The notes below the pieces were generated by a model. The model saw only the letters and a list, made by a program, of their open reading frames with translations. It was not told the DNA's origin and did not search any database. From Dictyostelium discoideum (Eukaryota), in the NCBI GenBank assembly GCA_000004695.1, contig CM000152.2:2528001-2592000 (forward strand): a DNA stretch of 64,000 nt. The letters are read 5' to 3'. The first letter of the stretch is position 1, and the number at the start of each line of letters is the position of its first letter. Made by a program: the position numbers and the translations under genes. Positions 30,407 to 37,304 of this stretch are shown here, one piece after another.

Positions 30407-31776
<1,370 letters not shown>

Positions 31777-32880: not shown

Positions 32881-35234
32881 ATGAAAATCAAAAGTTTAAT
32901 AATTTTAATAATAACAATATTATTTTTAAAAAAAATAAATTCAGCATTTGTTTATCCGAGACCTTCCGAATTAACACCAATTAAATTAAAACCAATTATT
33001 TCAATTGGTAATTTTTGTCCTTACAAAAATGTAAGTCTTTTTTTTTTTTTTTTGTTTTTTAGAAAAAAAGTTTAAAAAATAATTTAGAATTTAATATTAA
33101 CATCTAAATTAAAATAAATAAAAAAGTATGGTGTTCAATTAACAATAAATAAAATCAATTATAATTTGGTTATTGATACAGTAAATTCTGTAACAACATT
33201 ATCATCAAAAGAATGTAGATATGGATGTTTACGTTTACCTAGATTATATATTCCAAGTTCAAAAACGAAAGTTGATAAAGAAATTTCAAAAGGATATTAT
33301 AAAGATTCAACAGTATGGCAAGGTTATGTTGTTGGTGAAAAAATTATTATTAATCATAACTTAACAACAAAATCTGAAATTAAAATGATTGCATTAACAT
33401 CACAATCGAAACCACCTGCAAATCCAAGTAAGTTTTTTTTTTTTTTTTTTTTTTTTTTATTTAACATGTGATAATCTAATTTAATTAATTATTTTTTTTT
33501 AAAAAAAAAGTTTGTGAATCATCAAGTATGTTAGCACATGGTATAATTGGTGTTGGTCAATCAAAAGAAATTAATTCATTTGTTAGACAATTTTCAGGTA
33601 TGAATAATATACCACCAATATTTTCATTAACAATGTGTCCAGAGAATCCAAGAATTTGGTTTGGTGGATATGATCCAAGTGTTTTAGAAGAACCAAAAAA
33701 GTTTGCATTTACAAGATCAGAGGGTGACTCATATGGATTTACAATTAATAATGTTTATATTGGACCAAATACATTATATCAAGTTACAGATTTTGTATGG
33801 AAATCTGAATTGGATACAAGTACACCATTCATTCATTTACCATCATCAGTTTTTCATCAAGCAATTCAAGTTTTATCAAGAGAGAGACATTTTAATAAAT
33901 ATTTTAATACTCGTTTCTTTACTGAAAAGAAATGTGTACTAAATCCACTTGCAAACTTTACAATTGATCAAATTAATGGGTTATTACCAAAATTTAGAAT
34001 TGTTTTTAAATCAAATTTGCCAAACTCTGAAATCTCTTTAGATGCAGTACCATCCTATTTGGTAATTGAAGGTGATAAAGCATGCCCTGGTATAGTTGAG
34101 TCATTGGATTATAATTCAAGATTTGGTGTTTCATTATTTCAACAATATATGGTTTTATTTGATCAAGTCAATGGTTTAGTTGCGATGGGTAGAGCAAGTT
34201 GTAAACCAAATCGTTGGGTACCTGGTAGTAATTGGGGTGAATGTAAAAGAGATTTAAATTCAACTGATATTAGAGAAGGTGGTATAAATTGTGAAATGCA
34301 AACTCGTCCATTAAAATGTATAAATGGTAGAAATAAACGTGTTGCTGATTCTCTTTGTCATGGTATTTTTAAACCACTCTACAAAAGACCATGTTATAAA
34401 GAAGAAGAATCATCTGAACATCATAATGACAATTCTTCATCAAGTCATCATCCATCAATATTTGTTGATAATGACGATGATGATCAAAATGAAAATTCAC
34501 CTCCACCAGCAACTAAAAATGGTAAGAAAATAACACCAAAACCAGTTAGAACTAAAAAACCAACAACAGATTGTAAAGTTGATATTGGTACTTGGAAAGT
34601 AATGGGAAATTGGTCTGATTGTGATCAAATTTGTGGTTCAGGTTTACAAACTAGAGAGGTACTTTGTATTTCGATCAATGGTGAGTTATTAGATCAAGAA
34701 AGATGTAATTCTCATACTAAACCACCAAGTGAACGTGTTTGTGCAGTTGCAAAATGTCAAGCTGAGTATCATTGGGATACTTCAGATTGGTCAGGTTGTT
34801 CGACTCAATGTGGTGAAGGTACACAAAGTCGTTTTTCAACATGTATAGATTCATCAGTTTGGAGAAATGTTGATTCATTAAATTGTAAAGGTCCAATGCC
34901 AATTCTTGAAAGAGAATGTCTTGGTCAACCATTATGTAGTAAATTCAAATGGGATTGGGAACCTTGTCAACCAAGCTGTCCAGAAATGGCTTATGTCTAT
35001 TGTTATAACTCTTCATCAGCTACAAAAGTTGATAATTCATTTTGTAAACAAATTCCAAATCTATTCATTCCAATAGATTGTAAATGTTATAAAACAAAAA
35101 AACATTTACAAACAACTTCAACTTCTGAATTCTCTGACAGTACTTCAAATTCTTCAAAATTAATATTACCTTTAATTTCATTAAATATTATTTATTCAAT
35201 TTTAATTTTATTTATAACAATAAAATTAATTTAA
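32881..35234 (+). CDS. Secreted pepsin-fold (peptidase A1-like) protein with degenerate catalytic motifs (DTV / DTS) fused to 3-4 thrombospondin type-1 repeats and a C-terminal hydrophobic anchor; about 724 aa, 3 exons: join(32881..33030,33127..33427,33511..35234)
   Basis: Exon 1 is a signal peptide (MKIKSLIILIITILFLKKINSA) ending at AAT|GTAAGT. Exon 2 begins KYGVQLTINKINYNLVIDTVNSVTTLSS (A1 N-lobe Y.G.I.IGTP.Q.F.VIFDTGSS with G replaced by V), with phase-1 donor A|GTAAGT. Exon 3 has the C-lobe YIGPNTLYQVTDFVWKSELDTSTPFIHLPSSVF (~IVDTGTSLL) and FGVSLFQQYMVLFDQVNGLVAMGRASC (~[22 protein letters not shown]). TSP1 repeats follow: WGECKRDL...C, WSDCDQICGSGLQTREVLC, WSGCSTQCGEGTQSRFSTC, plus a partial fourth. 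It ends in a Ser-rich linker and LILPLISLNIIYSILILFITIKLI. Confidence 0.75.
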
Positions 35235-35366: not shown

Positions 35367-37304
35367 TTAAATATTTGTATCAGATTTCCTAATATTTTGT
35401 AAAAAGTTATTTTTTGGAGTTGATAAAATCGGTTTTTGAGAATTATAATTATCATCTGAATCATCTTCACTTTCTGAATTATCACTTTCATTTTCTTTAT
35501 TTTTAGTTGATGTTGTTGTGGTTGTAGTTGTTGTTGTTGTATTTGTACTATTATTATTATTATTATTATTATTAGTTAAAATGGAAGACGGTATATTTGG
35601 TGAACTTGAAACATTATTTATAATTGGTGAAGAAGTTGGTCTATCATCATTACTTATTGACCTAGAATGACCACTACTACTTGATGTATTTACATTAGCA
35701 CTACTACTACTACCACTAAGATCAACTCTATTTCTATTGAAAATCTTTGTATTATATTCATCATCTGTAGAGATAACTGATTGATCATAAACAGATTTTG
35801 GAATTTTTAAGTAAGAAATGTTACCACTGATGACACGAGCAGTGAAATCTGGTACAAAGTGATCAGATTTCAAAGCACCAACACCAAGAGTAGAGAATGG
35901 ACCACCTTCACTAATAAAAGCTTCACTACCTGAACGAATTTCAACTTTACCTTGGAGGATGATTGTAAAGAAATCAGTGGCGACACCTCTGGTATAAATG
36001 AATTTATCACCTGTGGCTGGTCTATCGACATCCAAAACAATGGCACCTTTAGTGGAGAGCATTTTGATGAAAACATTTTCAGAGATGAACTTGGAGGAGA
36101 ATTCATCGATTGAACCACTAAGATAAGAGTAAATGGCTTTGACTTGTTGTGAGGATAATTGGGCGAGTGCAGTTTTTGGACCATGGAAAGAGCCGATTGT
36201 TCTATAGTCAAAGGTTGAATGATGTTGATTCTTCTTTCTAACCTCATGATACATATCATTCTCATCGAGAATTTCATCTTGAAGAATCTCTTCAATGATA
36301 TCTTCCAAACAAATGATGCCAAGGTTCTCATAGAATGGATCCCCTTCACCTTCGTTATTAACTTTATGTACGATTGCCATATGTGAACGACCAGTTTTAA
36401 ACTCTGTTAACATTTGATCCAATGATGTATCATTCCATGTCTTTACCAATTGTCTTTTGTATAGATTGAGAATGGTTCTAAGTGGTACTTTATCAGCTGG
36501 ATTCAATAATGCTAAATCTTTGACGTATAGACAACCTACAATATTGGATTTGTTTCCTTCAAATACTGGAATTCTACTATGTCCACTCTCTAAAATCAAT
36601 GTAATGGTATTATAGTCTAAAAGACTTTCAATATCAACACTAAATACTCTCTCCATTGGTGTCATAATTAATGAAACTTTTTTATGTGCAAAATCTAAAA
36701 CACCTGTTAACATTGTAACATCACTACGAGATACACCACTTTCATTTGCATGGGCTGAATGAATATCTAATAATTTTTTTAACTTTTTTAAAAAGAAAGA
36801 AAGAGAGAGAAAAAAAAAAAAAAATATTTATTAATAAAATATTAATAAAAAAAATAAATAATAAAAAAACTTACTTGATTTCTTGAATAAATTGTACCCA
36901 TTTCATTACCTAAAATCCAATCTAATGTTAAACTGATTGGATAAGCAAATGGGAAAAAGAGAAAGATGAAAACATAAACGATATAGATTGTATGAGCACC
37001 AACTGCTAAACCATGTCTTGAACATGCGGCTTGCGGTATAATTTCACCAGCAATAACGATAATTGTAGTTGATAAAATAAAACCAACGAAACCACTTGTC
37101 AAATCGGCAAGGAAAATTGATAAAAGTGCATTTACACCTACATTACCCAATAAAAGGGTACAAAGTAGTAAATTACCTTTTTGTCTAACCGGATATATAA
37201 TTTTTGCATATTTACTTTCTTTCGCCGTCCCACTCGCTATAATAATCTATATATATATGTTCAAATAAAAATTTTTTTTTTTTTTTTAATTGGAATTAGA
37301 TTGG

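Follow-up and report, generated by a model that had tools for sequence, protein, structure and literature searches.

The gene rsc22 of Dictyostelium discoideum, which lies on the forward strand at positions 32881-35234 of the 64,000-nucleotide stretch analysed here (contig CM000152.2, positions 2,528,001 to 2,592,000; GC content 21%; referred to below as the window), probably encodes a surface-tethered pseudo-aspartic protease, i.e. a protein in which the cleft of a pepsin-like domain would have been kept for the binding of a ligand and in which associated thrombospondin type-1 repeats (TSRs) would bind matrix or glycan, in the multicellular stage of the life cycle. This reading is derived from the sequence and from its comparison with homologues. 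The predicted product starts with a signal peptide and continues with a domain related to the A1 (pepsin) family, a degenerate repeat (TSR0), a linker, two further repeats (TSR1 and TSR2), a truncated TSR-like module (module 4), a Ser/Thr-rich stalk and a signal of the glycosylphosphatidylinositol (GPI) type (coordinates in Table 1).

The locus is an already catalogued D. discoideum gene. Its coding sequence (ATG at 32881, TAA at 35232-35234, three exons, GT..AG introns) specifies a product of 724 amino acids (aa) that is identical at 724/724 positions to the D. discoideum AX4 protein XP_641492.1 / EAL67511.1 / UniProt O15916. The protein is named "Random slug cDNA22 protein" (rsc22) in UniProt and 'thrombospondin type I repeat-containing protein' at NCBI, and the former name indicates that rsc22 was isolated as a slug-stage cDNA. 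The gene is single-copy in Dictyostelium and no paralogue occurs within the 64-kb window. Orthologues were found in ten species, distributed over the genera Dictyostelium, Tieghemostelium, Polysphondylium, Acytostelium and Synstelium.

Residues 22-381 of the product have the A1 (pepsin) fold in both lobes. The preliminary description of this DNA, made from the letters alone, had recognised two pepsin-type lobes, among others from the block QYMVLFD..GLVAMG (present at aa 362-377), and this is borne out by profile alignments to proteins of known structure and by relatives that match the Pfam family PF00026 (Asp). The two psi-loop lobes that define the bilobal pepsin fold were both found, and a profile of the orthologous domains retrieved from the PDB BACE1 (1.3e-5), plasmepsin V, Bla g 2 (5.8e-5), BACE2 and renin. 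In these alignments the IDTxN of rsc22 falls on the DST motif of Bla g 2, and its LDTS on the DSG of BACE1 and the DTS of Bla g 2. An exhaustive search of 1.84 billion representative proteins with a three-orthologue profile yielded 331 proteins at E<=1e-3, of which 171 also passed E<=1e-10; alignments mostly cover profile positions 25-360, and all ten of these relatives that were scanned with Pfam matched PF00026 (10/10, 1e-23 to 1e-44). A word-indexed protein search returned dictyostelid orthologues only, and with a 100-sequence profile it returned only 5 proteins. Custom profiles of homologues with DTG/DSG motifs score the rsc22 domain at 180-215 bits. The A1-like domain thus descends from an aspartic peptidase family that has D-T/S-G in both lobes. 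Structure prediction with AlphaFold2 reached a predicted local distance difference test score (pLDDT) of 29.9 with a 4-sequence alignment and was workable only with 100 homologues.

One result speaks against the fold assignment. In a Pfam scan the D. discoideum protein gave no match to PF00026 at E<=10, and the family matches only 1/14 of the rsc22 orthologues. The preliminary description had itself named such a missing match as grounds for rejecting its proposal, and taken literally that is what was obtained; the fold is supported by the other lines of evidence given above. The N-terminal 380 residues matched only TAXi_C (aa 225-372, 5.9e-14, 52.6 bits), and no match to TAXi_N was found in the Pfam scan of the protein.

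The family from which the domain derives has a nearly invariant catalytic apparatus, which is altered in rsc22. It had been proposed initially that both DTG triads are degenerate (DTV and DTS); the corresponding strings are present and their register is confirmed by profile alignments, so that neither the N-lobe nor the C-lobe of rsc22 contains the Asp-Thr/Ser-Gly triad of active A1 peptidases. Homologues were aligned in a larger set of 150 family members and in a cleaner set of 100 sequences. In the cleaner set, the column of D67 holds Asp in 93/94 sequences and that of D252 in 95/95, and the columns of V69 and S254 hold Gly in 92/94 and 93/95, respectively. In the larger set, the distant homologues show DTG/DSG at motif 1 in 129/134 cases and at motif 2 in 130/144, and Gly is absent at the motifs from all six dictyostelid representatives. 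A motif table of 14 rsc22 orthologues gives the replacements: motif 1 reads DTQ in D. citrinum, D. dimigraforme, D. firmibasis and T. lacteum, DSQ in D. purpureum and DTR in P. violaceum, and motif 2 reads DTS with the exceptions DTT (P. violaceum), DSR (A. subglobosum) and DAS (S. polycarpum). Even among isolates of the D. discoideum type codon 69 (33181-33183) is variable: AX4 and one 'cf. discoideum' isolate have Val, three others have Leu, and the equivalent residue in sister species is Gln. As the replacement at position 69 is bulky, variable and alternates between Val and Leu among close isolates, the position appears to have been freed from catalytic constraint.

The changes extend to the surroundings of the motifs. 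The family-invariant residues whose loss is confined to the dictyostelid clade (G69, S70, A76 and G254; G197 and G58 differ as well) lie mostly at the active site. The Ser that follows the DTG of motif 1, which in pepsins hydrogen-bonds the first Asp, is Asn in all rsc22 orthologues, and the flap reads YKDSTVW in rsc22 versus YGDGSGW in the family, i.e. the flap glycines are replaced. The scaffold is kept: eight Cys (at family near-invariant Cys positions), W114, G116 and Y108 are present, as are the GG-YD and FD-x-G-FG blocks (a C-terminus of the GFG type). Y108 aligns with the flap Tyr of the family (82/94) and is Phe in D. purpureum; a hidden Markov model (HMM) alignment to BACE1 shifts the register here by 1-3 residues. 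Judged from these alignments, the loss of Gly at both motifs is specific to the dictyostelid clade, which answers the question, raised at the outset, of whether orthologues in other dictyostelids keep or lose DTG. Catalytic death, as suspected initially, is the best reading of a clade-specific loss of Gly with variable replacements (V/L/Q/R at motif 1; S/T/R at motif 2) and altered neighbouring residues, and the rsc22 domain is very probably no peptidase.

Degenerate motifs could in principle also result from a wrong gene model, or the locus could be a decaying pseudogene. Mis-splicing is conceivable in a very AT-rich genome with short introns, and the absence of a PF00026 match from the D. 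discoideum protein would fit such an explanation. It is refuted by the following. The product equals a RefSeq/UniProt protein whose name records its cDNA origin, and both motifs are exon-internal. The reading frame and the exon structure are conserved in D. firmibasis and D. citrinum, where the same structure, with exons of 150 and 301 nt, yields the annotated proteins. The orthologues span 10 dictyostelid species in five genera, and the ratio of nonsynonymous to synonymous substitution rates (dN/dS) of the whole gene is 0.10-0.14. The gene model is correct, because the product equals the reference and the exon structure reproduces the D. firmibasis and D. citrinum orthologues. An alternative splicing that would restore DTG was likewise considered and rejected, given that exons 2 and 3 each enclose one motif, well away from the splice sites, and that the product is the reference protein.

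The A1-like domain is under strong purifying selection. Calculated by the Nei-Gojobori method among D. discoideum, D. firmibasis and D. citrinum, its dN/dS is 0.055-0.094, compared with 0.16-0.28 for the linker and 0.23-0.77 for the stalk and tail; the values for TSR2 and module 4 are 0-0.056 and 0-0.022, respectively. Identity to D. purpureum is 77% in the A1-like domain and 31% in the linker. The strength of the selection argues that the domain is functional, as a conserved pseudoenzyme and not as part of a decaying gene: both features by which a pseudoenzyme is defined were found, in that catalytic residues have been lost and the domain is nevertheless under purifying selection, where the loss of activity itself is predicted from the residues.

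Some of the same observations weigh against a dead active site. No orthologue that covers the two Asp residues has lost either of them, the Thr/Ser at motif position 2 is retained in nearly all, and T255 after motif 2 and the aromatic residue of the flap (Tyr/Phe) are kept as well; a retained Asp pair, Thr/Ser and flap aromatic would also be expected of a site that still works or has been re-tooled. Moreover, the histo-aspartic protease of Plasmodium works with a residue other than Gly at the position of the motif Gly. The rsc22 product might then be a working, atypical aspartic protease, namely a BACE-like sheddase or processing enzyme, tethered to the membrane at the slug surface, that acts via Asp67/Asp252. 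The high constraint on the domain (dN/dS below 0.1), the fact that the closest solved structures are those of the active, membrane-bound BACE1/2, and the active-enzyme appearance of the nearest relatives would all agree with this. We nevertheless consider it unlikely: the two Gly positions show 98% conservation in the family and are here occupied by bulky and variable residues, the Val/Leu alternation among isolates of one species marks a position on which catalytic constraint has been lifted, the Ser that hydrogen-bonds the first Asp and the flap-tip glycines are gone, and Bla g 2, an A1 homologue with the same DTS motif, is regarded as inactive.

The match to TAXi_C raises the alternative that the protein acts as a decoy or inhibitor of foreign hydrolases, like the plant proteins TAXI and EDGP, and thereby defends the slug surface against bacterial or fungal enzymes. 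TAXi_C also matches relatives with intact DTG/DSG, alongside PF00026, and it therefore marks a type of C-lobe and not an inhibitor function. In addition, TAXi_N does not match, TAXI is a more distant structural neighbour of the rsc22 domain than BACE1, fungal pepsins, Bla g 2 and plasmepsin V, and neither TAXI nor EDGP has TSRs or a membrane anchor. A decoy function is thus quite improbable. Membership of rsc22 in the TAXI family was rejected separately, in the absence of a TAXi_N match and of any specific structural closeness.

The conserved pseudoenzyme, as we prefer to see it, is related to proteins in which the same architecture is combined with an intact active site. In fourteen of the distant homologues with intact DTG/DSG the terminal Cys of the peptidase domain is followed directly by a TSR, and PF00026 and TSP1_ADAMTS were found together by Pfam in five proteins (P0008, P0022, P0036, P0104 and P0137). 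The junction is the same in these proteins as in rsc22. In the intact homologues it reads, for example, ...GFAPTATCYNTWATSAWSACS, ...VGFAPTATC-YNT-WATSAWSACS in P0104 and ...VGFGKTEC...W....W..C in P0031; in the dictyostelids it reads ...GRASCKPNRWVPGSNWGEC (...AMGRASC-KPNR-WVPGSNWGEC) in rsc22 and ...GFGKADKC-YSYH-WGTTEWSKC in T. lacteum. The preliminary description knew of no pepsin-like/TSR fusion as a described architecture; this has to be qualified to the extent that rsc22 is annotated and intact A1-TSR fusions occur in uncultured eukaryotes. We know of no description of such A1 peptidase-TSR fusions as a class ('aspartic ADAMTS-analogues').

These proteins of uncultured eukaryotes, recovered from metagenome or Logan assemblies (e.g. 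P0008, P0022, P0036, P0104 and P0137), are the closest relatives of rsc22 outside the dictyostelids (E about 1e-25 to 1e-12). Like rsc22, most have a signal, an A1 domain, a terminal Cys and a TSR that follows a few to ~30 residues on, and several are long, of the surface type, and also contain EGF, Ser/Thr-rich and transmembrane segments. Unlike rsc22, they have DTG/DSG in both lobes and strong PF00026 matches, are presumably active, and mostly contain one TSR versus four modules in rsc22. The locus of P0022 (L002, 6609-8603) lies on a 17-kb contig of 34% GC that is eukaryotic and encodes cofilin, DHHC, NF-YB, Myb, PP2C and tyrosine phosphatase proteins. As a side observation, an A1-TSR family can be delineated (P0008, P0010, P0022, P0036, P0043, P0046, P0104, P0132 and P0137) with intact DTG/DSG and an ADAMTS-type TSR at the C-terminal Cys, often with EGF-like, Ser/Thr-rich, transmembrane and even WW segments downstream.

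Many others among the closest non-dictyostelid relatives of the A1-like domain are encoded in high-GC DNA, have a single domain, and look bacterial, with lipoprotein-like N-termini. One of them (P0101) lies on a compact metagenome contig of 3.3 Mb (L001), and another (P0153) has an 86%-identical relative in a metagenome-assembled genome of the Polyangiaceae, i.e. of myxobacteria (JBEKGQ010000190.1; L004). Bacterial pepsin homologues are known to exist (Rawlings and Bateman 2009, PMC2761423), and the high-GC relatives fit with these. Such homologues belong to the same broad subfamily as the proteins retrieved by the rsc22 profile, many being single-domain and high-GC; they differ from rsc22 in that they keep DTG/DSG, lack TSRs and are prokaryotic. 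A neighbour-joining tree of the dictyostelid clade and its relatives is dominated by the long dictyostelid branch, such that a sister subgroup is not separable, and by HMM affinity the eukaryote-like, TSR-rich cluster and the bacterial-like remainder score rsc22 about equally. We infer that the A1-TSR fusion predates the loss of Gly, where the shared junction is the one feature that points to an ancestry within the TSR-bearing group. On this evidence rsc22 looks like a pseudoenzyme descendant of a surface aspartic protease.

Of the 3-4 TSRs that had been proposed initially, two are canonical, one is degenerate and one is a truncated derivative. TSP1_ADAMTS (PF19030, gathering score 23.8 bits) matches the whole protein at 2.6e-19, matches to PF19030 in TSR1 and TSR2 and to PF00090 in TSR1 bear out the repeats as such, and the TSR region aligns to the TSRs of human thrombospondin-1 in the PDB. 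A profile score above the gathering score, the pattern W..W..C...CG.G.Q.R...C and six Cys were found together in TSR1 and TSR2; TSR0 is recognised as a TSR via its orthologues only, and module 4 via hhalign only. On TSP1_ADAMTS, TSR0 scores 16.5 bits in D. discoideum, compared with 26.0 bits for the corresponding segment in T. lacteum and 29.9 bits for that in S. polycarpum. An insertion, RDLNSTDIREGGIN (34246-34287, approx. aa 397-410), is present in the D. discoideum group of species, has a shorter form in D. purpureum and is missing from T. lacteum, and it is probably this insertion that keeps TSR0 below the Pfam threshold in D. discoideum. The insertion also holds an N-glycosylation sequon (NST). 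Module 4 has no Pfam match and aligns to a TSR1/2 profile by hhalign with a probability of 86.9% (E 4.2e-6). It is the most constrained part of rsc22, being 100% identical to that of D. firmibasis, and this hints that module 4, besides the canonical TSRs, carries a key interaction. Reading of the two canonical TSRs revealed no O-fucosylation consensus C-x-x-(S/T)-C-x-x-G in either: in CDQICG of TSR1 (34632-34643) and CSTQCG of TSR2 (34815-34826) the residue before the second Cys is I and Q, respectively. The Trp residues of both repeats form spaced W...W pairs only, and no tight WxxW.

Both ends of the protein would fit a location at the cell surface. A signal-like N-terminus and a GPI-like C-terminus had been noted at the outset, and they are visible in rsc22 as well as in full-length orthologues. 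The C-terminus of rsc22 (...SDSTSNSS-KLILPLISLNIIYSILILFITIKLI-stop) has a hydrophobic segment of ~25 residues without a cytoplasmic tail, and a like hydrophobic C-terminus occurs in the full-length orthologues of D. purpureum, T. lacteum, P. violaceum and A. subglobosum. A GPI anchor is probably the natural reading of such a tail.

Table 1. Features of the rsc22 locus (positions in the window; residues of the 724-aa product)
Feature	Position	Strand	Remarks
Exon 1	32881..33030	+	aa 1-50; signal-peptide-like segment and start of A1-like domain; GT donor at 33031
Signal-peptide-like segment MKIKSLIILIITILFLKKINSA	32881-32943	+	aa 1-21; inferred from hydrophobicity
A1 (pepsin)-like pseudo-peptidase domain	32944..34202	+	aa 22-381; span takes in both introns
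Intron 1	33031..33126	+	GT..AG, very AT-rich; position kept in D. firmibasis and D. citrinum
Exon 2	33127..33427	+	aa 51-150 and first base of codon 151; N-lobe, degenerate motif 1, flap
Degenerate catalytic motif 1, D67-T68-V69 (for D-T/S-G)	33175..33183	+	within LVIDTVNSV, aa 64-72; exon 2
Intron 2	33428..33510	+	GT..AG
Exon 3	33511..35234	+	aa 151-724 and stop codon
Degenerate catalytic motif 2, D252-T253-S254 (for D-T/S-G)	33813..33821	+	within ELDTSTPF, aa 250-257; exon 3
TSR0, degenerate thrombospondin type-1 repeat	34203..34397	+	aa 382-446; abuts last Cys of A1-like domain
Low-complexity linker	34398..34571	+	aa 447-504; acidic, then basic and Pro/Thr-rich; poorly conserved
TSR1, canonical	34572..34757	+	aa 505-566; PF19030 52.5 bits, PF00090 24.4 bits
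TSR2, canonical	34758..34937	+	aa 567-626; PF19030 32.7 bits
Module 4, truncated TSR-like, Cys-rich	34938..35090	+	aa 627-677; WxW..C...C kept, without the CGxGxQxR strand
Ser/Thr-rich stalk and C-terminal hydrophobic tail	35091..35231	+	stalk aa 678-698, tail aa 699-724; read from sequence

The genes that flank rsc22 are unrelated to it, and no functional link to these neighbours is apparent. Upstream lies a gene for an ACTMAP-like (actin maturation protease-like) protein (30736-31776, +). On the other side a fragment of a CNNM-type metal transporter (CNBH_CNNM2_C, CBS; 35367-36713, -) is convergent with rsc22. In D. firmibasis (L005) the rsc22 orthologue has a syntenic neighbour with CNNM Pfam matches, and in D. 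citrinum (L006) a convergent gene of similar size is found in a similar placement next to the rsc22 orthologue.

Functionally, the proteins closest to rsc22 are the inactive A1 homologues Bla g 2, TAXI/EDGP, Basic 7S globulin and the pregnancy-associated glycoproteins. The cockroach allergen Bla g 2 shares the inactive pepsin fold and the DTS motif, and differs in being a soluble, single-domain protein of the insect gut that has neither TSRs nor an anchor; its loss of Gly is independent, and the relatives of rsc22 are not insect pepsins. TAXI-I/IIA, EDGP and soybean Basic 7S globulin are soluble proteins of the plant apoplast without TSRs, and are structurally farther from rsc22 than BACE1 or fungal pepsins. 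BACE1 and BACE2 are, unlike rsc22, active (DTGS, DSGT), type I transmembrane proteins that lack TSRs and have an identity to rsc22 of ~19-20%. A survey found no BACE-like protein in D. discoideum (PMC3865767). The order of a protease domain followed by ADAMTS-type TSRs is shared with the ADAMTS proteins, as is the best Pfam model for the repeats of rsc22 (TSP1_ADAMTS), and a parallel exists with ADAMTS-like proteins and papilin, i.e. family members without catalysis that act as matrix binders. Yet the ADAMTS protease is a metallo (M12B) domain and restricted to animals, and ADAMTSL proteins have no protease domain instead of a dead one. Outside the TSRs, the likeness between rsc22 and ADAMTS is one of analogy, not homology.

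The above suggests the following course of events and mode of action. In the dictyostelid lineage both psi-loop glycines were replaced, as were the flap glycines and the Ser that follows motif 1; the domain would no longer hydrolyse peptide bonds, and its former substrate cleft would have been kept as a putative site for the binding of a peptide or a protein. The TSRs would add matrix or glycan binding to a product that is predicted to be secreted and, as a probably GPI-anchored glycoprotein, to be exposed at the cell surface. The anchor would hold it on slug-stage cells, where it may act in cell-matrix or cell-cell recognition. Action in the multicellular stage is suggested by the name 'random slug cDNA', and a role of rsc22 in adhesion or recognition is plausible.

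A more far-reaching and rather doubtful proposal is that free-living protists possess an unrecognised class of A1 peptidase-TSR surface proteins ('aspartic ADAMTS-analogues'), a single copy of which was turned by the dictyostelids into a GPI-anchored pseudoprotease receptor whose Asp pair and cleft recognise a peptide or protein signal or a matrix component during development, or in which, alternatively, a catalysis without Gly was retained. If true, this would place a ligand-binding dead protease in slug morphogenesis or in kin or tissue recognition.

The gene rsc22 and its TSRs are already public, as is the listing in UniProt of three orthologues (those of D. purpureum, D. firmibasis and P. 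violaceum) as 'Peptidase A1 domain-containing protein', and full-text literature searches with the gene name, the accessions and Dictyostelium/dictyostelid thrombospondin found no paper on rsc22 or on the A1-TSR architecture. Catalytically dead proteins with a pepsin fold are known, e.g. Bla g 2, TAXI/EDGP, Basic 7S globulin and the pregnancy-associated glycoproteins, and so are TSR-bearing surface adhesins. The significance of the finding is moderate; the gene and its domains were in the databases and expectations are not overturned. What it adds is an unstudied combination, i.e. a presumably dead A1 domain that is permanently fused to TSRs and probably tethered to the membrane, as well as an evolutionary context, in that it appears to derive from A1-TSR surface proteases of uncultured eukaryotes that seem to be active and have myxobacterial pepsin homologues among their wider relatives. 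As a single-copy gene that is under strong constraint, occurs in 10 dictyostelid species of five genera and is on record as a slug cDNA, rsc22 would offer an accessible genetic model for a pseudo-aspartic protease at the cell surface in simple multicellular development.

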